Source: a virus (lineage: Duplodnaviria > Caudoviricetes). From it: a stretch of DNA of 60,670 nucleotides. Below are positions 10,722-52,671 of the stretch, in pieces. Numbering within the stretch: position 1 is the first letter of the stretch; every line of letters starts with the position of its first letter. The notes beneath the pieces were generated by a model. It ran no database searches and was not told the DNA's origin. It worked only from the letters and a program-made list of their open reading frames with translations. A program made the translations under genes and the position numbers. Location of the stretch: positions 1 to 60,670 of the IMG/VR virus record IMGVR_UViG_3300028596_000012; one strand, 5' to 3'.

Positions 10722-10724
10722 GGG

Positions 10725-11048: not shown

Positions 11049-11065
11049 GTAGACCTCCCGTGTAA

Positions 11066-11110
11066 GACGAAGCCGCCAGCCGCACGGGGGAACGGTCTGG
11101 CGGCTTCGCC
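11066..11110 (-). terminator. Long hairpin, probable intrinsic terminator after the capsid genes
   Basis: GGCGAAGCCGCCAG...CTGGCGGCTTCGTC stem followed by TT. Confidence 0.65.
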
Positions 11111-11120
11111 GGTCTGCTGA

Positions 11121-11420
11121 CTACGACTGCTGCTCGCGCAGCGCGTCGTTCTCTTCCAGCCGCTTGATGAGCTGCGGCTTGGTACCGCCGACGGGAAGCT
11201 CTCGCTGCCGGCACTCCTCCTGAAGCGCGGGGAGAAGCATCTCTTCGTACGGCACCAGATCGTCGTCGACGACCAGCTCGGTCTCGACCTCCAGTTCGCC
11301 ACGCTCGGCGGATTCCGCCCGCGCGTCCATCGTGGCGACCTGCTCGTCGTACCCGCGCGCCAGAAGGTATGCGCGGTCCGAATCGGACAGCGGCTTGTTC
11401 GGGTCCACGTAACGGCTCAT
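11121..11420 (-). CDS. SAP/HeH-domain small protein
   Basis: LQEECRQRELPVGGTKPQLIKRL matches the SAP motif. Confidence 0.75.
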   Translation of the reverse strand: MSRYVDPNKPLSDSDRAYLLARGYDEQVATMDARAESAERGELEVETELVVDDDLVPYEEMLLPALQEECRQRELPVGGTKPQLIKRLEENDALREQQS

Positions 11421-11433
11421 TGTTTCCCCTCCC

Positions 11434-12597
11434 TTACCAGGCGAACGCAGCGGGAACGGAGTACGCGGAAGCGTGCAGCTGCATGATCGCAGCCGCGCCG
11501 CGCGGTCCGACGGCGGTGCCCATGCCCCGCACGAAGTACGAGTCGATGAGCGGGTAGGACTGCCGGTTGCCCGGCAGGAGGACCAGGCCCCGGAGACCCT
11601 GGTTCTCGTGCTCCCGGATGCCGATGACGTTGGTCTGGGTGTCGTTGCCCCGGACCGCGAACGCCACCATGTAACCGGCGGGGATCTGGCGGTCTGTGAC
11701 CACCAGGTACGGCCCCCACGAGCCGGCGACGTCCATGCCGGCGAACGAGTTGCCCGGAAGCCCGCCCACCAGCGTGAAGCCCGGCGGCAGCATCATGGCC
11801 ATGTTCGCCCCGGCGGACGGGATGAAGTCGTACAGCGACACGGGGTCCACCGCCGCGCCGTAGTCCTTCGCAACGCCCCGCTGGAAGCCCACGATGCCGG
11901 CGTTGGCGTCGATGGGGTTCATGAGGAACACGATGTTGTAACCGTTGGCCCGGTTGTAGCCGTGCTCCTCGACCAGCGCCGCCAGGTCCAGGTGGTCCTG
12001 CGGGTCGAACGCCGTCTGCGAAGCCTGGCCGGAGAACGTGTAGTGCGTGTGGGTCGCCGGGTTGAACGTGTTGCCCCGGTACGGCGGGATGTACATGGAG
12101 TCGGCGTTGTACAGCGCCGTCACCGTGTACGAGGTGCCGTCGATGAGCGTGGTCCGGTTGGCGTTGTTGAAGAGCGCCTTCATGACCATCTCGAACTGGA
12201 GCGCGTTGTCGGCCTCCAGCATCATGTCCATGATGGCGTCCAGCTGGCGCTGGGTGGCACCGGTGCTGTGACCTGGGCCGCCCGCCAGGAACTGGAAGGT
12301 GTACGCGTGCCGGGCGTCGAACCACTCGAACGGGTAAGCCCGCGCGGTCGGCGTGAGAGCCGGTCGCAGGGACTTGGGGATGCCGAACTCGGACGCCTTC
12401 TCGAAGCGCTCCGTGCCGGGCTGGACGATGTCCTCGATGACGGACGTCGTGGTGAAGCTCAGCAGGTTGATGAGCGGCTGCCGGGCCGCGTTGAACTCCG
12501 CCAGGCTCTGCTGGTACGAGGTCCAGATCGCGTTGAGATCCTGGCCATCACGGGTCCTGGTGAGGATATCCCCGGAGGCGTTGTAACCCTGTGCCAT
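11434..12597 (-). CDS. Major capsid protein
   Basis: 387 aa, strongest codon bias in the genome, follows the scaffold and decoration genes. Confidence 0.88.
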   Translation of the reverse strand: MAQGYNASGDILTRTRDGQDLNAIWTSYQQSLAEFNAARQPLINLLSFTTTSVIEDIVQPGTERFEKASEFGIPKSLRPALTPTARAYPFEWFDARHAYTFQFLAGGPGHSTGATQRQLDAIMDMMLEADNALQFEMVMKALFNNANRTTLIDGTSYTVTALYNADSMYIPPYRGNTFNPATHTHYTFSGQASQTAFDPQDHLDLAALVEEHGYNRANGYNIVFLMNPIDANAGIVGFQRGVAKDYGAAVDPVSLYDFIPSAGANMAMMLPPGFTLVGGLPGNSFAGMDVAGSWGPYLVVTDRQIPAGYMVAFAVRGNDTQTNVIGIREHENQGLRGLVLLPGNRQSYPLIDSYFVRGMGTAVGPRGAAAIMQLHASAYSVPAAFAW

Positions 12598-27870: not shown

Positions 27871-28572
27871 TCAGCTCACGCTCCCCGCGTTGGGTGGAAC
27901 GTTGGCCTCGGACTCGTTTTCGTCATCCAGGTATCGGAAGCCCGGCAGCGGTGCAGGTTCGGGCTCGGCACAGCCCTTGCACCGGCAGTTGCCCGAGTGC
28001 CGCCCGCCCGGAGGCAGCAGAGGCTCCATCGGCGGGTTGCCCATCGTACGATGTTCGGCGCCCAGGTAGCCCTGAACCGTATCGTCCTTGAGCTTCTCCC
28101 GGCGCGCGTCCAGGTCGACGACCGCCCGGAGCGCCATGGCCGCAACCTGAACCAGTTCCGCCTTGAGCCGGTCGTGCGCCTCCTGCGGGCCGTCGGAGGG
28201 GTCCTTGCTGTTGCCGGTCTCCGCCCCGGCCTCCAGGAACTCCTCGGCGATGACGTCGAACCAGGTTGCGGTACCGTTCCGTAGCTCCGCGTCCACCACG
28301 GCGCGCTGGATCTGCGACGCGACGCCGATGGGGCCTGTGATCATCCAGAACCGCCCCGGTCCGCCGCCCCACGGCAAGCTCTGGCCGGGGAACTTGGTGG
28401 TGGCGCGCTTGAGCTCGTCCATCACGGCGTACATGAGCTCCGCGTACTTCATCTGTTCACTGCTGAATGCCTGGGTTTCCATTGCGCCTCCTGGGCTAGG
28501 TTTGGGCGCCCGGTGGGCGATGTGCGGCCCACGCCGAGCGCAGAACGTGTCGTTGCAAAGGTCTGGATCCAT
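27871..28572 (-). CDS. MazG-like nucleotide pyrophosphohydrolase
   Basis: VIAEEFLEA...LKAELVQVAAMA all-alpha NTP-PPase motif. Confidence 0.7.
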   Translation of the reverse strand: MDPDLCNDTFCARRGPHIAHRAPKPSPGGAMETQAFSSEQMKYAELMYAVMDELKRATTKFPGQSLPWGGGPGRFWMITGPIGVASQIQRAVVDAELRNGTATWFDVIAEEFLEAGAETGNSKDPSDGPQEAHDRLKAELVQVAAMALRAVVDLDARREKLKDDTVQGYLGAEHRTMGNPPMEPLLPPGGRHSGNCRCKGCAEPEPAPLPGFRYLDDENESEANVPPNAGSVS

Positions 28573-29717
28573 CAGGTCCGCGCCGCCCCGGGATCCGTCA
28601 GCCACTCTATGGGCTGGATCGGGATAAGCCGCCGGGGCGGATCTCCACGACCGATGAGGCCGTCGACACCCGGCTCGGCCCCAGCATCCCTGTCCCAGTG
28701 CCCCTCACGGTGCCACTCGGTAGACGGGACGTTGTTGGCGGCGAAGCGATTGACGCGCTCTCGGATGGTGCAGCCCCGGTCAAACTTGGCCATGAAGCCG
28801 CAGTGCCCCTCCTGGTAGCACACCGGCTTGAGCGCGTCCGCCATCGCCTGGAACTGCCACCAGTCCGGGTGCCCGGACTTCCACCGATACTGGCTGAATG
28901 ACAGGTTCTCAGACGGGTGCTTTTGGCCCACCTTGCGAGCCAGATGGTCACCATACGCTCGGATCGCCTTGGCGATCTCCGCCATGACCACGCGCCACTC
29001 GAACTGCGCCTGGGTGCACAGGCGCTTGCCGGCCTCCGCGAGCAGCGTCCGCACCGAGACAACCCAGTGGTACCGCGTAGTCATCGCGTGCGGCATCAGG
29101 CCCCGCGCCTCCTCGGCGGGCACGCCAGCGTCCACGAGATTCTGGTACGACTGCTGCGCCTGAAGGATGGCGTCGTCCCAGGCGTCCCGCTGTAGCGCGT
29201 AGGCGTTATCGTCGGGTCCATAGTCCGGGTTCTCGGCCCAGTCGCCGTTCACCCCGTCGACCCCTGTAGCAACGTGCGACGGCACCGGCTTCGCCGCCAG
29301 AGAGGGCGGGTACGCCTGGCGGTCCAGCCACTGCTCGCCATCCACGACCGCGAAGCGCATGCTCTCCTGTGCGATGAACGAGAACCGACTGCGCACGGCC
29401 TGGTGCGTGAAGGCGCGGGTCACGCCCTGGATCAGGAAGTGGAACTGGATGGCCTCCAGAGGACCGTTGAGAACGGTCTCCTGCATGGCCTTCCATGCCG
29501 CCCGGCGGTCTTCGTCGGTAACGTCGGCGAGCCGGCTGATGACCTTACCCTCGTAGATGCCGCACAGCGCGGCTAGGGACCCCAACGGGTCCGGCGTCGC
29601 ATTCAGCAGCACGACCGTGGGGCGGGCTCCGCCCCCGGGGGCACGCGTCTCCTCCGGCATGGGCGTACTGTGGTACTGCGCGCGATCCGCCCACCGCACC
29701 AACTTGTCGCGGCTCAC
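28572..29717 (-). CDS. thyX: Flavin-dependent thymidylate synthase (ThyX-like, divergent)
   Basis: GVTRAFTHQAVRSR-X7-S, EEARGLMP, RLC..AQFEW. Confidence 0.85.
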   Translation of the reverse strand: MSRDKLVRWADRAQYHSTPMPEETRAPGGGARPTVVLLNATPDPLGSLAALCGIYEGKVISRLADVTDEDRRAAWKAMQETVLNGPLEAIQFHFLIQGVTRAFTHQAVRSRFSFIAQESMRFAVVDGEQWLDRQAYPPSLAAKPVPSHVATGVDGVNGDWAENPDYGPDDNAYALQRDAWDDAILQAQQSYQNLVDAGVPAEEARGLMPHAMTTRYHWVVSVRTLLAEAGKRLCTQAQFEWRVVMAEIAKAIRAYGDHLARKVGQKHPSENLSFSQYRWKSGHPDWWQFQAMADALKPVCYQEGHCGFMAKFDRGCTIRERVNRFAANNVPSTEWHREGHWDRDAGAEPGVDGLIGRGDPPRRLIPIQPIEWLTDPGAART

Positions 29718-30055
29718 TCGTTCTCCTCCTCGGCCCTCAAGCGGAGCATCTCCTTCACGGCGGTGTCGGAGTCGATCTGAAGTTCGCTCAGGGCCTGGAA
29801 AAACGGCTCAATAGCAGACTTCAGCGCGGGCAGGGCGGAAGCGGCCATCTGCTGAAAGGCAGTCAGGACGGGCGGAACTACGAGTGCCAGGTTCGCCATG
29901 GCCTCCGCCGAAGCACGAGCCAAGTATTCCTGCTGCTCCTTGGTCAGCGCAGCAGGTACCGGCCTACTGTCGTCCGACGGCACCGGTTCCTCCATGTAGT
30001 TGCCCTGCCCGTCCGTGTAGCTCACGCCCTTCTCCCGGTCGCTCGCGTAGCTCAT
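29714..30055 (-). CDS. Hypothetical protein
   Basis: ATGA overlap with the upstream gene. Confidence 0.5.
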   Translation of the reverse strand: MSYASDREKGVSYTDGQGNYMEEPVPSDDSRPVPAALTKEQQEYLARASAEAMANLALVVPPVLTAFQQMAASALPALKSAIEPFFQALSELQIDSDTAVKEMLRLRAEEENE

Positions 30056-30306
30056 CGGTGGCTCCTGTAACCGCCACGTACGCCTCGGACCTGAGTAACA
30101 TTTCCGCCGACGGTGCTGTTGGTGACGGACTGTGACGACATGCGGCCGTTCTGCATGCCGATCCAAATAGCGCCTCGAAGTAGAACGAACATGCCGATCG
30201 TAGTCATCAGCGCCACCCAGTACTGGTCCGCTATGAACCACCCCACCGGAACACCGAAGACTGCTCCGCCCAGCCAGGCGCTCCGGACGTAACCCCTGAG
30301 CCTCAT
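30052..30306 (-). CDS. Small two-helix membrane protein
   Basis: ATGA overlaps; two hydrophobic segments. Confidence 0.5.
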   Translation of the reverse strand: MRLRGYVRSAWLGGAVFGVPVGWFIADQYWVALMTTIGMFVLLRGAIWIGMQNGRMSSQSVTNSTVGGNVTQVRGVRGGYRSHR

Positions 30307-30761
30307 GCGCCGCCCTCCACTTCGTGCATTTCGTAGTGCTCGATGATGGTCAGCCCGCAGATCTGCGCCACCTGGCGCTCTACGGACGCCCCGGCCGACG
30401 TCGGCCAACCGGGCAGGAAGATGGCCGCCTCGCACGTCAGCATGGCCTTGATGTCGGCGCGCATGTAGCAGCCGTACTTGTGGATGGAGTCGAAATCGCC
30501 ATCCATCCGGGGCACCTCCGCCCCGGTGCACTCGCCCGAGTGGCCGTGGTCGACCTCGTGCGGGTTGACCGGCTCCCAGCCGCGTTCCCGCGCCGCGTCT
30601 GCGAACAGACCGAACGCCTGACGATTTCCGTTGGGCTTCCTGGCGATTGGCCCAGCGATGTACACCCGGGTACCCTTCGCCAGGTAGTGGCTGCCGGGCA
30701 GCCGGTTAGGTACGGTTCCCATGACGCTGTTCTCCAGGTAGTTGCGACGGTCGGCATCCAT
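30303..30761 (-). CDS. DUF4406 / nucleoside deoxyribosyltransferase-like protein
   Basis: VYIAGPI...N..AF...VNP...YMRADIKAMLTCEA..LPGW..SAGASVE. Confidence 0.8.
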   Translation of the reverse strand: MDADRRNYLENSVMGTVPNRLPGSHYLAKGTRVYIAGPIARKPNGNRQAFGLFADAARERGWEPVNPHEVDHGHSGECTGAEVPRMDGDFDSIHKYGCYMRADIKAMLTCEAAIFLPGWPTSAGASVERQVAQICGLTIIEHYEMHEVEGGA

Positions 30762-30863
30762 GCCTATATCACATCCAGTTCAGTCAACAGAAGTATCAGC
30801 ACTACGCTGACAGCCATCCCGACGATGGCCAACGTAGCTAGGCCGCTTAGCAACTTGCGAACG

Positions 30864-31436
30864 CTAATTGGCTCCCTGGCCCGGTTGTGCCGCCCCATTT
30901 TCTTCCTCCCACTCGGCCAGCGCCTTGCGGACGTAGTTGGGGCAATCGGCCTTGCCGCAACGAATCCGACCACCGACCTCGGCGACCTTCTTGTGCCCGC
31001 ATCGCGCGTAGAGACTACCGGGCTCCTCGTTGAAGGCCTTGGAGTCCGGGTTGATGTCGTCGGCCATGGCATCGTAGAGACGGCTCCACCGCGCGCTTCG
31101 CGACTGCGCCTTCAGGTCCTGGGCACCGGTCTGGTTCGGGACGGCAACCAACCGCACGTCCAACGCCAGGGCCACCTCGGCCATGACTCTTCGGGTCTCC
31201 GGGGCCATCTGCGACAGATCCCTCAACAGCCCCCAGGCAGAGTTCATCATCTGCATTTCGGAGGCGTTGGCGTCGTTGGTGATCTCGCCGGATCGCGCCA
31301 CCGCCCGCAGTGCGGCGTTGATGCCGACGGCCAACCGGCCGGCGTCGTCGCGACGCAGCAGGATGATCACCGGGTGCCATTCCCGGCCATCCACCGGCGA
31401 TGCGTGGGCAATAACGTCAGGCTTCAGGTATTCCAT
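30864..31436 (-). CDS. Hypothetical protein with a C-terminal Cys cluster
   Basis: AAGGGGA RBS before ATG 31436; CGH...C....C. Confidence 0.55.
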   Translation of the reverse strand: MEYLKPDVIAHASPVDGREWHPVIILLRRDDAGRLAVGINAALRAVARSGEITNDANASEMQMMNSAWGLLRDLSQMAPETRRVMAEVALALDVRLVAVPNQTGAQDLKAQSRSARWSRLYDAMADDINPDSKAFNEEPGSLYARCGHKKVAEVGGRIRCGKADCPNYVRKALAEWEEENGAAQPGQGAN

Positions 31437-31604
31437 TTTCGTCCCCTTTCTAGGGCTGGCCGGGCGGGTCCCTACCGTTGCCAGAGGATTCAACAGGCGT
31501 CCCTGGTTCGTCCGGCTGGCGGTCCGCCCGGCCAGCGATACAAACCTACTCTGCGGTCGAAAGCTGCCGCTACCTGAATCGGCTAGCGTTTTCACGGCCC
31601 GAGG

Positions 31605-34600
31605 CTAGGCCTCCGGGTCAATCACGGCCAGCTTCATGACCTGGACCGATATGCCGAACCCGGCTCCGCCCGTGCTTCGCTTGCCCAGGACGTAGAGCAC
31701 ATGATGGTTCGGCTGGAGCCCCTGCAGCATCTTGTGGTACCGGGGATAGGTGAAGCGATCGATGCGGACGTAGACGTCTTCGTCGCCGTCGTCGTAGCAC
31801 CGCAGGACGCAGGAGGTAACCAGATCCCGACGCTTCATGGTCTTGATGATCTCCTCCACCTCCTGCCCGGTACGGCTTCGCTGGTTCTCGATGTAGTCCT
31901 GATAGTTGATGCTGGCAATCATCCCCAGCCAACGAACCGTTGCGGCGTCTGGCATTCCGTACAGGTCGTCGGAGGTGCAGTTGGGGGCGGGTAGGTGGAT
32001 CTCTCCGAACCCAATATCGTCCCGTATCTCCGTCAGGACCCGCCCCGTCCGTTTCAGCCCGAAGGGATCCTCGTCGCCAATCTGGTGGCGGAACTTGTCT
32101 AGGGTCTTGGGGCCTATGCCCTTCACCAGTAGCAAGTCGTCAGCGCTGGAGAGGGCGGGCTGCCCGGCTTCCCTAAGCTCTGCCTCCAACGCGAGGATCC
32201 GCTTCACCGTCACCGGACCGACGCCCTTCAGCTGCCCCCAGCCGGCCACGATCACGCGGTCAGAACCCGGTCGGACTACGATCTGCCAGTCGGTGCCGGA
32301 TAGACCGGGGGTTACGCCGAGGACTCGGACTCCGTGCCGTTCGGCATCCTGAACGAGACGGGTCCACTTCTCGGGCTCCGTCTTGCGCAGCTGCGCGGTA
32401 TAGAACTCATACGGGTAGTGGACTTTGAGCCACATGCACCAGAATGCCAGGAGGGAATACGAAACGGAGTGAGGGACGTTGAATACGTAAGATGCAGCGG
32501 TGACGAGTCGTCCCCATACGGCTTTGGCGGTGTCAGCTGATACACCGTGGAGCTTCTGAGCTCTGGCAATGAAGTCCAGGGAGTGGGTGTTGAACTGGGC
32601 CTCGCCCAACTTCTTGGAGATGATTCGTCGGATCTCATGTACCCGCCCCACTTCCAGCCCGCCGAACCGCGCGAGTCCCTTGAGGATCTGTTCTTGGAAG
32701 ATGATCTGCCCGCGCGTAGACTCCGTCAGCTCGTCGATGATGGGGTGGAACCGCGTTGGCTTTTTGGTGCCCCGGTTGACTTCGATGTACTCCGTGGTGG
32801 TGCCGGAGAAGAGCGGCCCGGGGCGGGACAGCGTATTGATATGGGTCAGCACCTCGAATGATGTGGGCTTGATCTCCTTGTTGATCAGGCGGGTAGCCCG
32901 CCCCTCCCACTGGAAGATCCCGATAACGTCGTTGCGCTCGAACGCCTTCAGCGTGTCGGAGTCCTCGGTGCTGATCTTGTAGAGGTCTTCGACCGTAAGC
33001 CCGGCCATCTCCAGCGCGTGCCGGATCATGCCCATCGTAGAGAGCCCAAGGAAGTCCATCTTCAGAAGGCCGAGGTACTCGCAGTCGTACTTGTCCACGG
33101 AGGCGGAGTCCAACTCCCGGCCGTCGGCGTACTTCTTGTGGTACATGGCGCAGACATCAGTGATATCTGAGTTCCCCACCAGGAGGCCGGCTGCGTGGAT
33201 ACTCATCCCCCGGTAGTTGCCTTCTAGGCGCACAGCCTTCATCAGTTCCGGGTACTTGTTCACCACCGCCCGCGCGCTCTCGAAGGTGTTGATGGTATCT
33301 TCCAGCGCCTGATCCGCGCGGGAGTCTCCGCCCGAGCGCTCGATAATCAGGCCCTTCAACGTCTCCGCTGCGTGCTTCGGGATACGGTAAACTCGGGCGA
33401 CGTCATCGATGCTATTACGTCCCTTGTACTTCGTGTAGTTCGCAACGTTAGCAACACGATCGGCACCATATCGGGCGACGGCCAGTTCACGTACCTCGGA
33501 TCGCCGCTCGTCGTCGAAGTCCAGATCAACATCCGGGAGGTCCGTTCGGGTAGGGTCGATGAAACGGTCGAACATCATCAGCGGGTACTCCATAGGATCA
33601 ATCTCTGTGATCCGCAGGAGGTACGCGACCAGGCTGGCAGCCGCGCTGCCGCGAGCCGGCCCGACGGGGATGCCCTTATCCTTGGTAGCCCTGACGATGT
33701 CACTCAGCATCAGGAAGTAGTCCACGAAGTCCTTTTCGCAGATCTGCTCCATCTCGTGCTTCAGCCGGGCAGAGTAGCTGGCCCGTTCTGCCCGGTCAGC
33801 CATGCGTCGATTGCCTTGCCTGATACGATAGGCCCAACCCTCACGGAGCCAATGCCAGATGAGGTCGAGCGAGGTGGCACCACTGCCGAGTACTTCCCTG
33901 GCTTTTGGACTCTCGAGAAGCGCTGCGGCCACGGGAAATCGGAGGCGCTCAGCCTTCGGTAGCACCACGTTGCACCGTGCCGCGATCTCGGCGGATGCGG
34001 CAAGGCCAGCCGATGCAGATCTCCGCGAGAGGCCCGTATCACGGAGCCGTTGCAAAACAACATCATCGTCCGTCGGCGGAGCCAGGCGGATGTCGTACTC
34101 CCAACTGGCCTGCTGCTGGTCCACAGTTCCAGCTCCCCGCCCTGCGGCGTGAAGGATGACCTGCATCTCGTTATCGTCCGGGAGCGGATAGTGACAATCT
34201 GCGGTGGCGACCAGCGGAATCCCAAGCTCGCTACCAAGCCGCTCGTAGGCTTGGTTGATTTCCTTACTCCGCGCCAACTCAGGGAACATCTGAGTTTCCA
34301 GGTAGTACCGATCACCGAATATCTCCTTGAACTTCAGAGCCTGCCTCTTCGCCCTCGCGTAGGACGCGTCCGCCGGATCGATCGTCTTCCCGCCCAGTAG
34401 GCTGCAGGCAAGCAGGGAGTCCGCGCATCCACTGAGCACAATAATGCCCTCTGCGTTCTCCGCAAGGGTTTGCCCAGACACAGTTGGCCACTGGTAGTAG
34501 TCCCTCCAACTCTGCGTCACGATCTGCATCAGGTTGACATACCCAACCTGGTTCATGGCGAGCAATGTCAAGTGGAACTTCCGCCGGGAGCGCTCTCCGC

Positions 34601-34823
34601 CGCTGAGCTCCGTGTACGCCTCCAGACCGAAGATCGGCTTGACGTCGTGCTTGTTCGCAGCCTTCTCCAGCTGCGGGTGCGAAGAGACGTTCCCGTGCTC
34701 AGTAAGCACGGCAGCCTCATAGCCAAGAGACGCCAGGCGCTCTACGTGCTGCGCTGGCGTCCCATAGCCATCCATGAAGCTATATGTGCTGTGGTGGTGC
34801 AGGCTGACGTACTTCACTGCCAC
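31605..34823 (-). CDS. dnaE: DnaE-like DNA polymerase III alpha subunit
   Basis: PHP motif SLHHHSTYSFMDG, GPARGSAAASL, PDVDLDF, SIHAAG, KMDFLGL. Confidence 0.97.
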   Translation of the reverse strand: MAVKYVSLHHHSTYSFMDGYGTPAQHVERLASLGYEAAVLTEHGNVSSHPQLEKAANKHDVKPIFGLEAYTELSGGERSRRKFHLTLLAMNQVGYVNLMQIVTQSWRDYYQWPTVSGQTLAENAEGIIVLSGCADSLLACSLLGGKTIDPADASYARAKRQALKFKEIFGDRYYLETQMFPELARSKEINQAYERLGSELGIPLVATADCHYPLPDDNEMQVILHAAGRGAGTVDQQQASWEYDIRLAPPTDDDVVLQRLRDTGLSRRSASAGLAASAEIAARCNVVLPKAERLRFPVAAALLESPKAREVLGSGATSLDLIWHWLREGWAYRIRQGNRRMADRAERASYSARLKHEMEQICEKDFVDYFLMLSDIVRATKDKGIPVGPARGSAAASLVAYLLRITEIDPMEYPLMMFDRFIDPTRTDLPDVDLDFDDERRSEVRELAVARYGADRVANVANYTKYKGRNSIDDVARVYRIPKHAAETLKGLIIERSGGDSRADQALEDTINTFESARAVVNKYPELMKAVRLEGNYRGMSIHAAGLLVGNSDITDVCAMYHKKYADGRELDSASVDKYDCEYLGLLKMDFLGLSTMGMIRHALEMAGLTVEDLYKISTEDSDTLKAFERNDVIGIFQWEGRATRLINKEIKPTSFEVLTHINTLSRPGPLFSGTTTEYIEVNRGTKKPTRFHPIIDELTESTRGQIIFQEQILKGLARFGGLEVGRVHEIRRIISKKLGEAQFNTHSLDFIARAQKLHGVSADTAKAVWGRLVTAASYVFNVPHSVSYSLLAFWCMWLKVHYPYEFYTAQLRKTEPEKWTRLVQDAERHGVRVLGVTPGLSGTDWQIVVRPGSDRVIVAGWGQLKGVGPVTVKRILALEAELREAGQPALSSADDLLLVKGIGPKTLDKFRHQIGDEDPFGLKRTGRVLTEIRDDIGFGEIHLPAPNCTSDDLYGMPDAATVRWLGMIASINYQDYIENQRSRTGQEVEEIIKTMKRRDLVTSCVLRCYDDGDEDVYVRIDRFTYPRYHKMLQGLQPNHHVLYVLGKRSTGGAGFGISVQVMKLAVIDPEA

Positions 34824-35579
34824 TCTACCTTTGAGCTATAGAGGCCGGCTCGGTAGGCGCGCTCCATCAGGACATCCTCCGAGGCGGAAACCTTGCGGCG
34901 TATGGTATCGAGCTGGACAAGCCTGCCCTCCGAGCACCATAGGCACCCGCCCTCCAGGCAGGTCCGGTCGAAGACCGGCCAGCAGATTTTCCGCTTATCG
35001 CTCGGCTTGGGCATGCTTCCTACGCCTTCCCCTGTGCGGTCGCTTGAGGCTTCGATCGTACCAGCCCGCCGCGACGGTCCTCAGAGATATCGACTGATAC
35101 CCGATCACGTTATGGTTGCTGTCCTCTATCGGTATCATGTGGCGCACGCGCCGACTCGGAGCTCTGGTGCGAATCTGTCGGCAGTCGTACGCCCGGAAGC
35201 ATATCGGGCATCGTTGATAATCCTGCCAATCAACGCCCATCCCGACGCCGTTCCCTGGAGTACGGCAGCCGATCCTGCTGCCGGGCGGTGCAGAAGAAAA
35301 TGCCTATGGGGGAGTCCGTGACTAGGTGCGGCTTGTGATCCGCCCGGTTCCCGCACAGCCCCCACGGCACGTTCGTCAACGGCCAACCTAGTGGCTTCTC
35401 CGGAAGTTCCACCAGTAGCACCCCCACTTCGTGTTGAGGCGTATGCCGCTGATCTTCCGCCAGGATACCTCGTGCCGCAGTACGCAGCCTCCGCCCTTCT
35501 CCGCGTAGATCCACCCGGGGCCGAGCCGTACCATGACGTACGGGCGCCCCTTCGGCACGATCTTCAGTGTCATCCCCAT
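34814..35579 (-). CDS. Run of about four small overlapping Cys/Trp-rich hypothetical ORFs
   Basis: 34814-35014, 34995-35240, 35230-about 35386 and 35388-35579 tile the gap on the minus strand; starts uncertain. Confidence 0.4.
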
Positions 35580-35588
35580 GTAGCTATC

Positions 35589-36137
35589 CTACTTCGCTGC
35601 TGGCGTTGCGCCTACCTGGTTCTGGTAGTGCGAGCCGACGCCGGGGTCGCCGTAGAGACGTTCGGGTCGGGCAGCCAGCGCGAAGAACGAGATCTGCGCA
35701 ATCAGCATGCCGCGCCGAAGCTTAAAGTGCTTCAGGTTGGCGTGGTTCACCAGCTCCAGTGTCAACTGGCCCTTGAACCCGGGATCCACGAACCCGGCGC
35801 TGTGAACCTGGAGGCCCATCCGAGCCCATGTAGACTTGCCCTCCACGCGAGCGCATAGATGGGGCGGGACATGGATTGTCTCCATGGTGTGGGCCAGAAG
35901 GAACCGACCGGGCTCCATGTCCTCCTGTGCAAGCGCCTTGCTCCAGCCCGGAACCGGACCCTTGTACTCCATGAGGTCGTAGGCCAGTCCGGTCTCCGTG
36001 CGGATCTGCCCGCCCAGGCGCAGGTCGTAGGAGGCCGGCTGCAGCTGGCTCTCGTTGAACGGCTCAATCAGGTTGATACCGTTGGCCTCCTGGATCTTCC
36101 GCTGCTCCCGGATCTGCCAATCAACCAACTGCGTCAT
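35589..36137 (-). CDS. dcd: dCTP deaminase
   Basis: LQPASYDLRLG, EGKSTWARMGL, AGFVDPGFKGQLTLEL, HYQNQ. Confidence 0.93.
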   Translation of the reverse strand: MTQLVDWQIREQRKIQEANGINLIEPFNESQLQPASYDLRLGGQIRTETGLAYDLMEYKGPVPGWSKALAQEDMEPGRFLLAHTMETIHVPPHLCARVEGKSTWARMGLQVHSAGFVDPGFKGQLTLELVNHANLKHFKLRRGMLIAQISFFALAARPERLYGDPGVGSHYQNQVGATPAAK

Positions 36138-36577
36138 GTCTGGCCTCGTGCTTCTCTCATCATTTGCTGCTTAGCCAATGCATCGGCAACTTCTCTACTG
36201 GGCCCCCCGACTGCGTTATTAGTCCTCCTGTACTTTTCTGATTCGGCTCGCCTGAAGGCGGTACGTAGGTCGGCCATACGCTGCCTGGCGGCTTCGGACT
36301 CCGGGGCCATGAAGTCCGCGTAGATGATCTCCGCCTGGATAACTGCAGCCATGCCAGTCACCAGGGTAGCAGCGGTCTTGCTCAGCCCGGAGTAGCCGTT
36401 CAACAGCAGGTCGTTGTTGAGCACGGTGACCAGGTTCCCGGTATAGCCGTTCGCCTGCATCCGGTGCAGCTCGATGACCTCCTGCTCTCGCTCCAGGTAC
36501 TTCCGGTTGGCATCCATCAGAACGCCGGTCAGCCGAGCCATTTCCTGGCGGACCTCCGACAACGTTACCCGCCCCAT
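36134..36577 (-). CDS. Hypothetical helical protein
   Basis: Lies between the UDG and dcd genes; ATGA overlap with dcd. Confidence 0.5.
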   Translation of the reverse strand: MGRVTLSEVRQEMARLTGVLMDANRKYLEREQEVIELHRMQANGYTGNLVTVLNNDLLLNGYSGLSKTAATLVTGMAAVIQAEIIYADFMAPESEAARQRMADLRTAFRRAESEKYRRTNNAVGGPSREVADALAKQQMMREARGQT

Positions 36578-36674
36578 CCGCGCTGCCTCCGCTCCATCGC
36601 GTACCGAATCTGCGCCTGGGTGAATAGGATGCTGCGTGCGGGCTCTGCCCAGTCCTTGGGGCGGGTTGCGATCC

Positions 36675-37364
36675 TCATAGGATCTCCATATCCTGCAACA
36701 TCTTGCCAATTTCTTCCCAGTCTCGGCTCATCATCTCCTGCACCCGCTGGCCCCGCCGGAGGCCATAGGCCGGATGGAAGGCCGAGATGATCCACGGTCC
36801 CTTCTCCATCCGTTCCCCCGTCTCCGGGTGACGCGGCTTGTGGAAGGCGTGCCTCGCGTAGCTGACGCTGAGCATCGGGTACTCCGGGTGGATCGCGGCG
36901 TGCGCGACGCTTCCGACGCAGATGATCGCGGGCGGGCTTCCCAGCGCCCGGTACTCCGCCCGCAGGCTCTCCTTGGCGTGGTTGATCGCTGCCAGGTTCG
37001 GTGTCGCGTTGTGCGGCGGGCGGTACTTCACCACGTTCGTGATCCACGCGTTTGCGTCCCATAGCTCGGAATCCTCCTCGTGCGTCATCCCCTCGTGTCC
37101 GTCCGGAGTCATGGCGTACCGGTTAGGCAGCGGCTCCGCCCGCAGGCCGGCAACGTCCATGAGGTGCTTCAGGACCGTACCGGACGGCCCGCAGAATGGC
37201 TTCTCCTGGGCGTTCTCGGTCGCCCCTGGCGCCTCCCCCACGATCATGACGCGCGGCTCGTAGCGTTGGCCTCGGCCGGGCACGAACTGGATACCCGGTA
37301 GCCGGAGGTAGTCCCAGAACGGGTCGGTCTGGATATCCGCGTAAACGTCTCCCAGGCTACGCAT
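36675..37364 (-). CDS. Uracil-DNA glycosylase superfamily protein (family 4-like)
   Basis: MIVGEAPG..E....PF.GPSG, ITNVVKYRPP.N, FHPAY. Confidence 0.88.
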   Translation of the reverse strand: MRSLGDVYADIQTDPFWDYLRLPGIQFVPGRGQRYEPRVMIVGEAPGATENAQEKPFCGPSGTVLKHLMDVAGLRAEPLPNRYAMTPDGHEGMTHEEDSELWDANAWITNVVKYRPPHNATPNLAAINHAKESLRAEYRALGSPPAIICVGSVAHAAIHPEYPMLSVSYARHAFHKPRHPETGERMEKGPWIISAFHPAYGLRRGQRVQEMMSRDWEEIGKMLQDMEIL

Positions 37365-38112
37365 GTCCGTCCACGCATTCGTGGCAGGGGCAGGCGTTCT
37401 GCGACGCAGCCGTTACGCTGTGGGCTACTCCACGATCCAGCGGCTCCGGGTGCTTGTTGTCCCAGCCGTCCGCAGGACCCTTGATGATCTTGTTGTTGGT
37501 GTTCTGGAGCACCGTCCGGAGCGTGGCCCTGGTGCAGGCGATGCACTTCTCCCGTCCGCACATCGGCCAAGGCTGATCCCCGGCACCCCTGACCAAACGC
37601 TCGGTTGTGCCGTCGGGCCGGGTGATGGTTTCCAGGACGACGCCCTGAGGCCGGGGCTTTGTCCGGCCCTGCCATCGTTCGCCATCCACCATGGGCGCAT
37701 CCCCCAGCCGGCCGGGCGGAGGCTGCTCCCCGTCCATCATGGCGATCGTGAGGAAGCAGTGGGCAATGAGATCCATGAGGATCTCGCGCGGCTGTTCTCC
37801 GGCCAGACTCCGCCCCTCCCAGAGGGATTTCTTCAGCTTACCGATCTTGCGCCAGATGTCCGCGAACTGCCCACGGACGCCGAGCGCCCGGTGGTTCTCG
37901 TTCTCGTTGTCGTTGTAGTCCGCCGCCTTACGCGCGAACGTCTCCCAGAACTCCGGCATCAGGCGGTCCCGGATATACCGCCCGTCCGCGCCGGTGGGCT
38001 CCCCCTTGTCGAGCCAGCCTATGGGCTGCTCTTCGTCGCCGTATTCCAGATGGCGCCCGAAGTCTCTGACGTTCTCCGCCGCACTGCGTACCGCGTCCCC
38101 AAGGTCGCTCAT
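37357..38112 (-). CDS. Nucleotide modification associated domain 1 (DUF1599-like) protein with a C-terminal Cys-rich part
   Basis: RKAADY...IWRKIGKLK...E..REILMDLIAH; TAATG coupling to the SDR gene. Confidence 0.65.
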   Translation of the reverse strand: MSDLGDAVRSAAENVRDFGRHLEYGDEEQPIGWLDKGEPTGADGRYIRDRLMPEFWETFARKAADYNDNENENHRALGVRGQFADIWRKIGKLKKSLWEGRSLAGEQPREILMDLIAHCFLTIAMMDGEQPPPGRLGDAPMVDGERWQGRTKPRPQGVVLETITRPDGTTERLVRGAGDQPWPMCGREKCIACTRATLRTVLQNTNNKIIKGPADGWDNKHPEPLDRGVAHSVTAASQNACPCHECVDGHA

Positions 38113-38843
38113 TACCTGCCTCCGTTGATTTCCACTATGGAGCCGTTGAGGGCGGCCGGTCCGAACAGCACGTCGCAGATCACCTGCGCGACCTCTTCGG
38201 GGGTGGCCGGCCTGCCGAGGGCGGAGGAGGCGCGCTCGTAGGCTTCCGCGTACTCCGGCGTCCACCCGCGCAACTGTGTCACGCGCGCATCCACATACTC
38301 GGTCATCCTGGTGCCGGACACCTTGCCCGGTGCGACCGCGTTGATCCTCCAACCGCTGCCGGCGAGTTCCCGCGCGAGCACCTTCACCGTCATGTCCAGA
38401 GCGGCCTTACTGGCGCAGTAGGCCACCGAGGTACGCATGGGCCGCCGGGCGGCGTCGGAGCTAACCGCAACCACGGAAGGCTTGTACGACATCGAAGTCT
38501 GGGCATGGAGATCCATCAGAACCTGCATCGTCTGGACGAATCCCCAGACGTTGATGTTCATGGTGTGGTCCCAGTTCTCCTTGAACAGGTGCTCCGCCCA
38601 GTCCAGCTGGTTGAACCCAACGGAGTAGACCAGGTGCGTGGGGCGGATACCGAAGAGCGCATCACGCAACCGCACGTAGTCATCGATGTGGAAGTCCTTG
38701 ATGCCGAAGGCGTAGGTCTCAATCCCCATATCCGCCCCGGTCATGTTGGCAACGGCCGCCCCGATGCCGGAGCTTCCGCCCAGCACCACGACGCGCCGCT
38801 GGTCGTGCCCGAACGGGTCTGCACGATACTCAGGTGTCTCCAC
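38112..38843 (-). CDS. Short-chain dehydrogenase/reductase
   Basis: GGSSGIG, VSS, YCASK (YxxxK), INAVAPG, NGG. Confidence 0.93.
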   Translation of the reverse strand: METPEYRADPFGHDQRRVVVLGGSSGIGAAVANMTGADMGIETYAFGIKDFHIDDYVRLRDALFGIRPTHLVYSVGFNQLDWAEHLFKENWDHTMNINVWGFVQTMQVLMDLHAQTSMSYKPSVVAVSSDAARRPMRTSVAYCASKAALDMTVKVLARELAGSGWRINAVAPGKVSGTRMTEYVDARVTQLRGWTPEYAEAYERASSALGRPATPEEVAQVICDVLFGPAALNGSIVEINGGR

Positions 38844-39507
38844 TTACTTGTCCCCTTTTCCATTCGGCAACGGCGATACGAACCATTTCGTACGCCTGAG
38901 CCGCGTCCCCCCAACGCTTGACCCGTCCGCGCGTAACGGCGGAACGGTGCTCCCACTTCATATTGTACGGCTGATTCCTCAGCAATACTACGGGAACGTC
39001 GTACGCAATAGCGAGCATCGCCTGCGACGGAAGGTCTTCCAGGGCGCAAGCGACCCGCCCGTCCGCCTGCCGCTTGAGCTCGCGGTACTTCTCGTCTCCG
39101 TCGGCCGGATCGAACAGCAGGGCATCGTAGCCGATATCGTTGCGCCGCAACCACTCCCGCGTGTCTGGGTCGATGTTGTCCAGGCGGAGGTATGGTCGGG
39201 TAGTGCAGACCCAGACCTCTGCGGCTAACTCCAAACGGATACGGCGGATCATCGCTGAGGCCCCATCCAGGCAAGGCATACTCCGCTTCATGCCGCCCTG
39301 CCGGTAGGCCAGCTTGACCTCTCGGTAGACCTCCTTGGTCACCCCCATCAGGTCATGGATAGGCTGGCCGTTCGTAGCCTCCTGCTCCCGGGGCATCGGC
39401 TTCCCCAGGTATAGCTCGGCGAACTGCAGGAACCACTGATGGTACGCAGCCAGAGTCCCGTCAATGTCAACTGACACAATGGGGATGCCATATCCGTTGG
39501 TACGCAT
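38830..39507 (-). CDS. HAD-family phosphatase (5'(3')-nucleotidase-like)
   Basis: VDIDGTL, CTTRP, LED, QPYN motifs. Confidence 0.85.
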   Translation of the reverse strand: MRTNGYGIPIVSVDIDGTLAAYHQWFLQFAELYLGKPMPREQEATNGQPIHDLMGVTKEVYREVKLAYRQGGMKRSMPCLDGASAMIRRIRLELAAEVWVCTTRPYLRLDNIDPDTREWLRRNDIGYDALLFDPADGDEKYRELKRQADGRVACALEDLPSQAMLAIAYDVPVVLLRNQPYNMKWEHRSAVTRGRVKRWGDAAQAYEMVRIAVAEWKRGQVSGDT

Positions 39508-39509
39508 GA

Positions 39510-40316
39510 TTACCTCCGCGCGATCTTCTGTGCCGCCTCGTATGCCTCGTGAGACAGCACCCCTTTCTTCCAGGATCCGTACCGCCCCAGGCCGACGATC
39601 CGGTCTCCCCAGCAGGTGCAGTTGTGCCGGATGGGCTTGGTGACTTCGGCCACGGATACCGGAGGCTTCCGCGCCTCGGGCCACTCGCATGTCGTATGGC
39701 CGAAGACGTTGGATAACCGATACCACGCACGGTCTGGATCCCCGTTGCATATCACCGTATCTGGCGGGCAGGAGATCGGGCAGTGCCGCCCCAACTCCGG
39801 GGCATCCCCTGCAGCCCAGACCTTCTGCGACAGGAACTCGTGTCGGTCGTCGTCGCAGATTGCCGGGGCGGGGATCGTGTTGACGATGGCGCCCCAGTAC
39901 TTCCTTGCGGACGGGTTACCGAACTGCGACCGCATCCAATGCGGAGTAATGCGGACATCCGTCACCTGGTACTCGTATCGCTCGTATGCATCGAAGTACG
40001 CCATGCGGATATCCCAGGCGTAGTGGTGGCCCTCCAGCGTTGCCGGGGAAACCTGACCGGGCGGGACCGTACCGCCGTAGACCTTCTCCGCGTAACCCTC
40101 GGCAGTTCCGACCAGCTTGTACTCGATCTTGGACCGTCGCTCGTAAAGGCCAGGGATCGGCATGTGGAGGTACTGCGCGCCGAACATCTGGCTAGGACGC
40201 TTCCGGGAGTAGATGGTCACATCCCAGCCGGCCTCGTTGAACGCGTGCGCCGCGAACATCCCCGCCGGACCGCAGCCCAGGATGGCAGCCTTCTTCGGCT
40301 TCCTACTGAAAATCAC
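39510..40316 (-). CDS. FAD/NAD-dependent oxidoreductase (UDP-galactopyranose mutase/amine-oxidase-like fold)
   Basis: ILGCGPAG, GAQYLH, VNTIP, GRYGSWK; GGAGG RBS before GTG 40316. Confidence 0.8.
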   Translation of the reverse strand: MIFSRKPKKAAILGCGPAGMFAAHAFNEAGWDVTIYSRKRPSQMFGAQYLHMPIPGLYERRSKIEYKLVGTAEGYAEKVYGGTVPPGQVSPATLEGHHYAWDIRMAYFDAYERYEYQVTDVRITPHWMRSQFGNPSARKYWGAIVNTIPAPAICDDDRHEFLSQKVWAAGDAPELGRHCPISCPPDTVICNGDPDRAWYRLSNVFGHTTCEWPEARKPPVSVAEVTKPIRHNCTCWGDRIVGLGRYGSWKKGVLSHEAYEAAQKIARR

Positions 40317-40430: not shown

Positions 40431-40682
40431 CTAGCCCATTGCTTCATAGCGCTCCGCCGCCTCTGCTCGTACCGCGTCCACGTTCGGCGCGTATGAGTTT
40501 ACGATGATGGAGATGGCCTCTGCAAGACCCAGGGTGTGGCCCTGAAGCCGGATGTCATCATCCACTGGGTTTTCCCAGTCGACCTCCATAAGCTCTACGT
40601 AGCAACCCATCAACTGGTCCCAGAGCATCTCCAGGAGGGACTTGCCCGCGCAGTCCGGGCGGTGCGTAGTCATGTAGCTCAT
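40431..40682 (-). CDS. Hypothetical protein
   Basis: Acidic helical ORF; start uncertain. Confidence 0.5.
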   Translation of the reverse strand: MSYMTTHRPDCAGKSLLEMLWDQLMGCYVELMEVDWENPVDDDIRLQGHTLGLAEAISIIVNSYAPNVDAVRAEAAERYEAMG

Positions 40683-40816
40683 CCTATCGTTCGTAACCCG
40701 GCAGGATAGGTCGCGGTCGATGGCCCTTACGCAGGCAGCAGCGCGTACGCTTGCCCCCGTCTGGCAAACGTCCATCTGCTGCCTCCGTAAAAGCCGTCGA
40801 AACATTTGCCTAGAAA

Positions 40817-40931: not shown

Positions 40932-41507
40932 CTAGAACGGCGGCTCGTTGTCGTCGTCGGCCCCGGCGTCGTCTGCGTCGTTCGCGTCGTCGGACCCGCT
41001 ACCGCTGTCGTCGCCGGCCGGTGCCATGTACTTGATGGACTCGTACTCCGGCTTTTTGCGGTCCGGCCGGATGGAGGCGGTGAGCACCAGGCCCTCGATC
41101 TTGATCGGCCCGATCTTGGTGACCTGCTCGATCGGCCCGCCCTGGGCGTTGGTCCGGTCCGTCGGGGCCGTGATCGTCATGGTACGGAACTGCCTGGCGG
41201 TCACGCCGAGCGCGTCCAGGAGCGGCCGGACGCGCCACGCTGTGGAGCCATCCTCCTTGACGATGATGTAGTCCCGGCAGTAGTACCCCTTGTAGGGCTT
41301 GGTCTTCGCGTTGTGGGGCTCCAGCGTGAGGTGGACGATCAGCTGGTTGAAGCCGCCGGACGAGACCGTCTTGTCCATCCGCACGTTCCACTGGTACACG
41401 CCCTTGGGCGGACGTTCCCCAGTGTACTCCGGGTACTGATTGCCGTCGTCCTCGTAGTCGTCCAGAGCGGACTCGAGATCCGCCCCGCCCCACGTTACCT
41501 TCGCCAT
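40932..41507 (-). CDS. Single-stranded DNA-binding-like protein (DUF669-like)
   Basis: PPKGVY motif, acidic tail ending DDDNEPPF, follows the AAA ATPase. Confidence 0.75.
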   Translation of the reverse strand: MAKVTWGGADLESALDDYEDDGNQYPEYTGERPPKGVYQWNVRMDKTVSSGGFNQLIVHLTLEPHNAKTKPYKGYYCRDYIIVKEDGSTAWRVRPLLDALGVTARQFRTMTITAPTDRTNAQGGPIEQVTKIGPIKIEGLVLTASIRPDRKKPEYESIKYMAPAGDDSGSGSDDANDADDAGADDDNEPPF

Positions 41508-42511: not shown

Positions 42512-43186
42512 CTAGACGATGCGCGCCCTGAGCTCTTCATTGCTACCGAGGTACTGCGCCGCCACGTTTCGCTTGCCGGCGATGAGGGCGTTGTCGGTGA
42601 ACTGGATGCCGGCCGGATTCCAGCCAACGTACCCATCCGTCCACCAAGAGGGCTGGATAGCCTTTGCCTGCTGAGAAGCGTACGGCCGGGCGGGATCCTT
42701 CCGAACCGCCTCCGGCACCCAGTGTGCCTCTTCGAGGACCGGGCAAGCGCGCGATCCGTCGTGGCCCTCCATGTTGGCCGTCCAGAACCTCTTGGAAGTA
42801 TACACGGAAAGCGTCTTGCCTTCCGTAATGGCATTCCAGGCCTCCACGAAGAACATGAAGTCGAACCACTTCAGCCCATCCTGCTCCACATCCACGTAGG
42901 CGGCCCATTTCTCGACGGCCCCGGTGTTGATGAGCAGATCCATGAACAGCCCCGCTTGCGCGTGCTGATGACCGGGAACCAGGTACCAGTACACGGCCGG
43001 GACCAGACGGGGCTCCGCCAACAACGCATCGGCATTTTCCTGGAACATGGGGTCCTCGAAGGACCAGCCCTCCCGAGAGGATCCGCCCGCCTTCAGCTTC
43101 ACCATTCCGAATCCCTCGTCGGCGATCTGCTTAGCTGGAACTCGCACGCCCTGCCAGTGCGTCCAGTCGGTAGCCCATACGGTCAT
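42512..43186 (-). CDS. Glycoside hydrolase family 25 (lysozyme-like), catalytic domain only
   Basis: DWTHWQG, KAGG, DP.F..N, YWY, DVE, IQFT. Confidence 0.75.
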   Translation of the reverse strand: MTVWATDWTHWQGVRVPAKQIADEGFGMVKLKAGGSSREGWSFEDPMFQENADALLAEPRLVPAVYWYLVPGHQHAQAGLFMDLLINTGAVEKWAAYVDVEQDGLKWFDFMFFVEAWNAITEGKTLSVYTSKRFWTANMEGHDGSRACPVLEEAHWVPEAVRKDPARPYASQQAKAIQPSWWTDGYVGWNPAGIQFTDNALIAGKRNVAAQYLGSNEELRARIV

Positions 43187-51842: not shown

Positions 51843-52547
51843 TCAAGATCCTTGTACTGGAGAGCGCTCTCTGTCGATCAGATGCCTGATCATCCGGCGC
51901 CCAACGTAGCTTCCGTATATTGGAGGGATGGCTTCCGCCAGCTCAGACATGGTCATCCAGTCTATCTCCATGACGTCCTGCCATACCTTCTTTTCTCCCA
52001 TCCCGAGACCACATCCTCGACCGTACACGCCAACCACTCCAGACCATCGTTTCTCTTTACCTCTGTGGTATCGGCTCTGCCGGTAAAGCGGGTCCCGATC
52101 CTGCCAGGAGTGATCACAAGGCGGAGCTACCAGAGGGAAGTTCACCTCGAAGCCACGGTGACGACGGACGCGTAAGCCAAACGAGCTGCCACAGAGCCAT
52201 ACGGAAGAGGATAGCAAAGAGCTGCCCTCTACATTCTCGATGCTATACGGCTTGCCCGTAGCCATAAGCAACAGGCGTGTATCTGGTATCAGATCCAGAT
52301 GCCCCCCTCTCGCCCAGGATGGCGTGATTGCCGATGCAACCTGACAAGGCGGGCTGGCGTGGTATGCATCAAATGTGGACATGAAGTCTAAGTCTGACAT
52401 GACTTCCAAAGCGTCAGCCTTGATGAACTCGAAAGGGTATCTAGGCTGCGCCTTATGGTCCACGCCAACCACTTCAAATCCTGCTGCAGCAAGACCAGCG
52501 GCCATTCCTCCGGCCTTGCAAAATAGGTCCAGCAATCTATACGCCAT
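51843..52547 (-). CDS. DNA cytosine-C5 methyltransferase (compact)
   Basis: LDLFCKAGG (motif I), SPPCQ (IV), IENV (VI), RRHR (VIII), EAIPP.Y (X). Confidence 0.85.
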   Translation of the reverse strand: MAYRLLDLFCKAGGMAAGLAAAGFEVVGVDHKAQPRYPFEFIKADALEVMSDLDFMSTFDAYHASPPCQVASAITPSWARGGHLDLIPDTRLLLMATGKPYSIENVEGSSLLSSSVWLCGSSFGLRVRRHRGFEVNFPLVAPPCDHSWQDRDPLYRQSRYHRGKEKRWSGVVGVYGRGCGLGMGEKKVWQDVMEIDWMTMSELAEAIPPIYGSYVGRRMIRHLIDRERSPVQGS

Positions 52548-52671
52548 TATAGGACTTACCTCCGAGCCTAATTCTACCCAGGCCGCCACATGACGCAGGT
52601 AGGGGCGGAGCCTTCTTAGCGTCCGCCCCCACCGCGTCTCCCCGGGGGCTCGTGGCCCCCGGGGGCGTCTC

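Follow-up and report, generated by a model that had tools for sequence, protein, structure and literature searches.

A conserved, uncharacterised actinophage gene module with a variant ThyX-like protein, a flavoprotein and a DnaE-type polymerase

Gene content of the locus

A run of closely packed genes lies between positions 27,871 and 40,316 of the viral record IMGVR_UViG_3300028596_000012, which was analysed over its whole length of 60,670 bases (referred to here as the window). The record has a G+C content of 63.7% and a completeness estimate of 92%, carries nearly all of its genes on the minus strand, and looks like the genome of a lytic actinophage of a soil host. Among public sequencing runs, it matched contigs from soil metagenomes only, with no raw or long reads; one of these contains every sampled word and may be the source, and three share small portions. 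At the DNA level, its only match to isolates is a 200-base stretch of the DnaE gene, at 77-79%, in two Microbacterium phages. The run was originally predicted to be an undescribed DNA-modification pathway built around the phage's own DnaE. The module found at this locus is real and conserved in relatives, has yet to be characterised, and includes a ThyX that is a true variant.

The genes that make up the conserved part of the run are all encoded on the minus strand. The first is a flavoprotein of 268 amino acids (39510-40316) with a GCGPAG Rossmann motif, a GDAP motif and a match to phrog_8720 (2e-86). Its stop codon lies 2 bases before the start of an NT5C-like phosphatase of the HAD family (38830-39507), a deoxyribonucleotidase-like protein with a DIDGT motif. 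These are followed by a classical, FabG-like short-chain dehydrogenase/reductase (SDR; 38112-38843; adh_short at 3.5e-23; phrog_3142) and by a protein with a helical core, called Nmad-like here (37357-38112; phrog_10271). Farther along the run are a DnaE-type DNA polymerase III alpha subunit of 1072 amino acids, with PHP, polymerase core, fingers and HhH regions (31605-34823), and a ThyX-like protein (28572-29717) that has RSR at the position of the RHR motif and belongs to a divergent subfamily. The flavin adenine dinucleotide (FAD) oxidoreductase, HAD, SDR, DnaE and ThyX-variant genes were found where they had been predicted, as were those for a uracil-DNA glycosylase (UDG)-like protein, a dCTP deaminase and a DUF4406 protein. 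The tight coupling of the run is borne out by the coordinates of the open reading frames (ORFs), with every junction from the flavoprotein to the dCTP deaminase being an overlap or a gap of a few bases.

Conservation of the module in related phages

Synteny was assessed by tblastn of the window proteins against 80 IMG/VR loci picked by their flavoprotein gene, and the counts cover the 50 that extend 9.9 kb or more downstream of that gene. DnaE is present in 50/50 loci and the HAD phosphatase, adjoining the flavoprotein, in 47, while the Nmad-like protein and the SDR are found in 39 and 30, respectively. The UDG (17/50), the DUF4406 protein (9/50) and the dCTP deaminase (6/50) are accessory genes. 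Because the ThyX-like gene is often too distant to fall within the flank of a locus, whole records were searched. In a forward set of 45 flavoprotein-bearing records from contigs of at least 43 kb, a Thy1 match is present in 44, including all 31 of those that are at least 90% complete. The reverse set was drawn from 80 loci picked by the ThyX-like gene, of which 38 lie on contigs of at least 46 kb and are absent from the forward set; the flavoprotein is present in 35 of these 38 records and in 30 of the 31 that are at least 90% complete. The IMG/VR scan for the ThyX-like gene confirmed 408 stretches. The flavoprotein and ThyX-like genes abut in Microbacterium phages, as seen in locus L084. Gene-neighbourhood co-occurrence, proposed originally as a check on the pathway, thus proved positive for a core of flavoprotein, NT5C-like HAD phosphatase, DnaE and ThyX-like protein, often joined by the SDR and the Nmad-like protein.

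The same gene order as in the window is found in a block of actinophage clusters D, DV, DG, EF and their kin, examples being the Mycobacterium phages PBI1, PLot and KandZ, the Gordonia phage Xenia2, the Microbacterium phage Crestdrop and the Streptomyces phage Lizz. In these isolates, the block runs from an oxidoreductase through a deoxyribonucleotidase/phosphatase, in some cases a methyltransferase, a hypothetical protein and a FabG-like reductase, to a DnaE-like polymerase and a ThyX-like synthase. Compared with the isolate blocks, the window adds the dCTP deaminase, the UDG, the DUF4406 protein and several orphan genes, and is without the methyltransferase; in cluster D phages, an S-adenosylmethionine (SAM) methyltransferase lies inside the block. 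In Crestdrop (L001, locus 8858-12221), the annotation divides the DnaE-like polymerase between two neighbouring coding sequences, genes 56 and 57, whereas in the window it is one ORF. The gene-family table for Xenia2 (PMC11385102) gives overlapping but non-identical cluster sets for the families of the block. In this table, many actinophage clusters have a phage DnaE without appearing under the flavoprotein family, which, like the accessory status of the UDG, the DUF4406 protein and the dCTP deaminase, speaks against the pathway as first drawn. The literature searches returned only announcements of genomes in which the block genes are named, and no functional study of the block.

The ThyX-like protein

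The ThyX-like protein matches the Pfam model Thy1 (PF02511) at 92.9 bits, above the gathering score of 24.8, and its family profile matches the solved ThyX structures 3fnn, 2af6 and 3gwc at about 2e-20. It had been predicted to be a ThyX variant, which is right; alignment and profile comparison reveal a stronger divergence than was first described. The alignment consists of the window copy and 25 of 28 extracted ORFs, with two near-duplicates and one ORF of 669 amino acids excluded. In comparison with the ThyX of M. tuberculosis and C. glutamicum, the family keeps both arginines of the RHR motif, the Q.S.R stretch and two later arginines. R109, R111, Q117, S119, R121, R205 and R232 are invariant in the alignment and line up with nucleotide-binding positions of solved ThyX proteins. 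Elsewhere, GH.S...LEH becomes L..P.E., THE becomes THQ, S.RY becomes S.RF and SEHA becomes C.Q. The RHR(X7)S signature is not found in the family, in which both arginines and the serine are retained. The first of the canonical histidines acts in folate stacking. According to a review (PMC6514825), the RHR residues, together with Ser71 and Arg190 of M. tuberculosis ThyX, bind FAD. In the profile alignment, Ser71 and the RHR histidine are the FAD residues that are replaced. By these alignments, the family keeps the nucleotide-binding positions and diverges at the cofactor site.

A C-terminal extension of ∼130 amino acids follows the Thy1 domain. C234 in the domain and C300 and C316 in the extension are conserved at 90% or more, and a fourth cysteine, in a GxCxF context, is frequent; the conserved cysteines may form a metal site. 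The cysteines stand in the contexts RLCTQAQ, PVCY and DRxCxIR, and some distant members add CxxC inserts.

ThyA (PF00303) is absent from the window and from all 45 relatives, and the ThyX-like gene is therefore the sole thymidylate-synthase-like gene there. Enzymes that convert cytosine to uracil nucleotides are frequent: a dCMP deaminase is found in 14 of the 45 related records, in addition to the dCTP deaminase in 6 of the 50 loci, which fits dUMP as the substrate of the ThyX-like enzyme.

The flavoprotein and its possible partnership with the ThyX-like protein

The AlphaFold model of the flavoprotein (predicted local distance difference test, pLDDT, 96.1) displays a two-domain FAD-enzyme fold, and no Pfam or NCBIfam model matches the protein above its cut-off. 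In Foldseek searches of the PDB, the best matches are UDP-galactopyranose mutase and flavin monooxygenases of the p-hydroxybenzoate hydroxylase type, with a TMq of ∼0.55, a probability of 1.0, an E value of ∼5e-8 and an identity of 9-14%. Among viral models, Foldseek detected one close relative, the others being unnamed or generic FAD enzymes. The family is marked by the invariants GAQYLH, WYR, EW, C233/C235 and GRxGxWxK. A total of 460 relatives were found at E≤1e-5, and 174 related stretches are confirmed in IMG/VR. The isolated phages that match (n=126) infect Gordonia (46), Microbacterium (36), Mycobacterium (32), Streptomyces (9), Arthrobacter (2) and Nocardia (1). For the 60 of these 126 phage records that were listed, the flavoproteins share 32-48% identity with the window copy, and none of the 126 reaches 60%. 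SEA-PHAGES records name the protein 'oxidoreductase'. No relative was detected in 185,579 species genomes by a two-peptide-pattern scan, which divergent cellular relatives could escape, and the flavoprotein appears to be virus-only.

The near-obligate company of the two proteins raises the possibility, to which we give a low probability, that the ThyX-like protein and the flavoprotein make up an as yet undescribed two-component flavin system whose target is C5 of deoxyuridylate. Its product would be either dTMP, made by a new division of labour, or a non-canonical pyrimidine. A prediction of the complex between residues 40-381 of the ThyX-like protein and the flavoprotein, which has no controls, scored 0.16 against a mark of 0.32 and speaks neither for nor against binding. 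More boldly, the phosphatase and the helical protein would favour the non-canonical nucleotide, and DnaE would write it into the DNA of actinophages of the cluster D, DV and EF type.

One rival explanation takes the non-canonical product as its premise. The ThyX-like protein, having lost its histidine, and the flavoprotein would together make a C5-substituted deoxyuridylate, for instance a hydroxymethyl- or hydroxy-type derivative that would be further methylated in the relatives carrying the methyltransferase; the phosphatase and a pyrophosphatase would deplete the canonical competitor, and DnaE would incorporate the product. We consider this doubtful. It draws on the ThyX-like protein with its divergent cofactor site and retained nucleotide site, and on the virus-only flavoprotein partner, whose nearest folds include heteroaromatic hydroxylases. 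The deoxynucleoside monophosphate (dNMP) phosphatase adjoining in 47/50 loci, the SAM methyltransferase within the cluster D blocks and the fact that no functional assignment of the block was found in the literature searched all agree with it. None of the analyses gave direct evidence of a modified base, however, and no dNMP kinase that could act on a modified nucleotide was identified among the ORFs scanned. Further evidence on this explanation comes from the proteins proposed to clean the nucleotide pool and from the restriction sites.

The phosphatase, the SDR and the Nmad-like protein

The HAD phosphatase of the window scores 18.6 bits against Pfam NT5C (PF06941), below the cut-off of 24.8, whereas NT5C matches at E≤1e-3 were obtained for 27 of the 43 members of its family (best 4e-12); the orthologue in KandZ scores 31.9 bits. 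Residues D15 and D17 are invariant in the family. The protein also matches phrog_415, a phosphatase of the 'polynucleotide kinase' type, at 4e-15, and a search of PDB sequences with the family profile found no relative. For the SDR, a role as a folate enzyme of the FolM/pteridine-reductase type was considered but has no support, as no such model is among the best 25 of its 207 NCBIfam matches.

These assignments bear on a second rival explanation, in which the flavoprotein, the HAD phosphatase and the SDR, together with the methyltransferase where present, handle a nucleotide-derived small molecule and not DNA precursors, and merely share the early replication operon with DnaE and a ThyX that is ordinary though divergent. 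Such a set might remove a host defence nucleotide or signal, or make a nucleoside-type effector. A phosphatase, a flavoenzyme, an SDR and a methyltransferase do resemble a tailoring set, the block is virus-only, the phosphatase matches phrog_415, and the fold of the flavoprotein is generic, with UDP-sugar mutase, hydroxylases and renalase all at a TMq of ∼0.5. The co-occurrence in both directions and the adjacency in some lineages nevertheless tie the flavoprotein to the ThyX-like gene, and the best Pfam match of the HAD family is a deoxynucleotidase. The explanation is, in our judgement, improbable.

The Nmad-like protein had been described as 'Nmad1/DUF1599-like', an identity that was not confirmed. 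It has no Pfam match even at E 10, and 0/32 family members match Pfam, DUF1599 (PF07659) included; the Atlas lead that links the protein to DUF1599 clusters has a value of 0.87. A search of PDB sequences with the family profile gave no match. The conserved core spans ∼90 amino acids, and residues 43-127 are helical, with a mean pLDDT per ten-residue block of 89-98 except for 79 and 70 over residues 61-80. Foldseek found no match to the model at E≤1e-3, the best being 2p06 at E 0.45; enzymes of the MazG type occur in the non-significant list, whose top 50 include DCTPP1, HisE and DR2231. An all-alpha NTP-pyrophosphatase fold is on this model possible but unproven. The C-terminal half of the protein is a poorly modelled, variable tail with cysteine pairs of the CxxC type (CIAC, CPCHEC). 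The ORFs in relatives range from 95 to 461 amino acids, and the length of the tail differs widely.

At the far end of the run, the gene at 27871-28482 (minus strand) had been called 'MazG-like', for which the analysis yielded an Atlas lead (0.86) only. The protein has no Pfam match at E 10 (PF03819/PF01503), does not resemble the PRA-PH MazG of Crestdrop, which is a true MazG of a phage, and matches phrog_2831, of unknown function. Marginal matches to the gene were found in 3/45 relatives, and it is outside the conserved module. In the pathway that was originally drawn around DnaE, the real, packed and recurring module stands, whereas the removal of a canonical nucleotide by MazG is not supported, the gene being unverified as a MazG and not conserved. 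The same result counts against the C5-substituted product, for which this protein was a proposed cleaning enzyme.

Restriction sites and modification markers

The frequency of common restriction sites such as GGATCC and GTCGAC had been taken to fit chemical protection of the DNA. Under a Markov model, both occur at close to expectation (GGATCC 50 vs 45.0 expected; GTCGAC 18 vs 17.2), and the argument fails. CCGCGG is found 0 times in the window, with 35.9-38.6 expected (z of about -8.2 to -8.5, a value that no other hexamer reaches), while GCCGGC, at 80 vs 74.7 expected, is not avoided. The analysis was extended to 44 of the 80 related loci, each of at least 18 kb and without N, using words with an expected count of at least 8. 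A z≤-3.5 was reached in 124/1371 palindrome tests vs 318/46,495 non-palindromic words. Of the 44 loci, 26 avoid CCGCGG (SacII-type), 18 avoid GCCGGC and 26 avoid one or more A/T-containing palindromes, namely CATG (12 loci), TGCA (10), CTCGAG (7), GAGCTC (5), AGCT (4) and GATC (4). In three related loci, AGCT occurs 0 times with 50-64 expected.

Palindrome avoidance therefore points to restriction pressure on block-bearing phages at sites containing every base. It argues for restriction-sensitive DNA and against general chemical shielding. Since these phages rely heavily on site avoidance, finding common sites in a genome does not in itself indicate chemical protection. As for the proposal of a C5-substituted deoxyuridylate, global shielding of T or C would not lead one to expect such strong avoidance, which extends to sites with T and with C. 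An ordinary means of protection is also at hand in a C5-methylase-like gene of the phage itself. This compact ORF of ∼230-248 amino acids (51843-52589, minus strand) contains the C5-cytosine methyltransferase motifs I (DLFCKAGG), IV (PPCQ) and VI (ENV) and matches Pfam DNA_methylase at 23.4 bits vs a cut-off of 22, and is short for the family.

The prediction had also noted that the usual markers of known pathways were lacking. ThyA-type enzymes (PF00303), TGT/DpdA (PF01702) and PurZ (PF00709) are indeed absent from the window, with positive controls matched; this does not extend to glycosyltransferases, for which no family search was made. The absence of these markers agrees with a C5-substituted product made by another route. 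Ribonucleotide reductase (PF02867) is likewise missing from the window. Nothing in the present results supports a new DNA modification, and sequence is a kind of evidence that leaves room for an altered base.

Accessory and neighbouring genes

The remaining genes of the run are likewise on the minus strand. The family-4-like UDG (36675-37364) contains a GEAPG motif and matches Pfam UDG at 73.3 bits vs a cut-off of 24.3, with TIGR00758 at 91.7 bits, below its cut-off of 125.3. The dCTP deaminase (35589-36137) matches PF22769 (7.9e-36) and, at 141.3 bits, exceeds the cut-off of 92.8 for the TIGR02274 equivalog. The DUF4406 protein (30303-30761) matches PF14359 at 59.9 bits and phrog_355 at 1e-25, a family named nucleoside 2-deoxyribosyltransferase by PHROGs. 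Three lineage-specific hypothetical proteins, at 36134-36709, 30864-31595 and 29714-30241, belong to no family and are found in 0/80 related loci; Pfam scans of these three and of 40431-40805 gave nothing credible.

The rest of the record encodes a Prim-Pol/D5 primase-helicase, a PD-(D/E)XK nuclease, an SNF2 helicase and an AAA_24 ATPase. The minus-strand gene at 40932-41507 encodes a protein of 191 amino acids with no Pfam family and a C-terminal tail that is strongly acidic and has NEPPF as its last residues, and is found in 15/80 related loci; this tail resembles that of single-stranded DNA-binding proteins. An ORF at 42512-43186 (minus strand), which lies in the replication block and is flanked there by the PD-(D/E)XK nuclease and the AAA_24 ATPase, has a weak match to glycoside hydrolase family 25 (lysozyme-like), at 26.2 bits vs a cut-off of 27.

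Proposed function of the module

The explanation we favour, with confidence about evenly balanced, is that the block is a replication-linked module for the supply and sanitation of pyrimidine deoxynucleotides in a lytic actinophage, with a two-part ThyX-like system and canonical DNA, perhaps with 5-methylcytosine added by the phage's own C5-methylase-like gene. The dCTP deaminase, or the dCMP deaminase in some relatives, would generate uracil nucleotides. A pyrophosphatase would then yield dUMP; candidates are the helical Nmad-like protein, a bifunctional deaminase and a host enzyme. The ThyX-like enzyme would convert dUMP to dTMP, and the flavoprotein would supply or recycle a redox or flavin function for it. 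Such a partner is proposed because the ThyX-like protein has lost several of the canonical cofactor-contacting residues. The NT5C-like phosphatase would trim unwanted dNMPs, and the UDG would keep uracil out of DNA made by DnaE. In this scheme, the substrates and products are putative throughout, and the SDR and the Nmad-like protein are given presumptive places.

Several points weigh against the supply-and-sanitation explanation. The first concerns the enzyme at its centre. The ThyX-like protein scores 68.9 bits against the TIGR02170 equivalog, below the cut-off of 87.9, and its activity as a thymidylate synthase is therefore not assured. The RHR motif reads R[Q/S/E/N]R in 26/26 members and RSR in the window, with the histidine lost, and by profile alignment the family has also lost the canonical histidine and serine of GH.S and the histidine of SEHA. 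The second concerns the remaining genes: plain dTMP synthesis needs no SDR, no cluster D methyltransferase and no Nmad-like protein, and no dUTPase was identified. A dNMP phosphatase beside a thymidylate-synthase-like enzyme recalls, moreover, the phages that exclude a canonical nucleotide. Finally, site avoidance is compatible with modifications that are small or partial and do not stop restriction enzymes from cutting, and the co-occurrence counts share phage ancestry and are not independent events.

Significance and comparison with known systems

The block is widespread and conserved, and is annotated only by generic names, with no function shown as far as the literature searches reach. If the proposed partnership is true, a ThyX relative with canonical cofactor residues lost and its own flavoprotein at its side would mean that pyrimidine methylation by flavin enzymes can be carried out in a new manner and, at a lower probability, that a modified base is made by way of ThyX for the first time. 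Several of the carriers can be propagated on harmless laboratory hosts (Mycobacterium smegmatis, Microbacterium foliorum, Gordonia), which makes the question directly testable. The site counts also carry a caution, as common restriction sites present at expectation say nothing of chemical protection in these phages.

In the T4 (5-hydroxymethylcytosine), SPO1 (5-hydroxymethyluracil) and PBS2 (uracil) systems, an enzyme of the thymidylate synthase family, a deaminase, nucleotide hydrolases and a phage polymerase occur together. This general gene logic, which extends to hypermodification through 5-hydroxymethyldeoxyuridine (5-hmdU), is common to the block of the window. A modified base is documented for phages of the T4, SPO1 and PBS2 type and for hypermodified phages, and not for the phage of the window. 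The base-replacement phages use ThyA-family hydroxymethylases, and hypermodification uses the 5-HMUDK kinase and transferases; in contrast, the window has no ThyA, and no kinase or transferase of the hypermodification type was found among its ORFs scanned. The thymidine hypermodification pathway via 5-hmdU is described in PMC8989533.

Two comparisons with known enzyme families place the two proteins of the proposed partnership. In its Rossmann FAD domain, which contains the GxGxxG and GD motifs, the flavoprotein agrees with two-domain FAD enzymes of glutathione-reductase-2 type, such as UDP-galactopyranose mutase, monooxygenases of the p-hydroxybenzoate hydroxylase type and renalase. The similarity is one of fold only, and the flavoprotein is about 100 residues shorter, at 268 amino acids compared with 360-390. 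The ThyX-like protein shares with ThyX, the flavin-dependent thymidylate synthase (FDTS; 2af6/3gwc, 3fnn, 1kq4), the Thy1 domain and the residues of the nucleotide site; unlike canonical ThyX, its family is nearly always accompanied by a separate flavoprotein.

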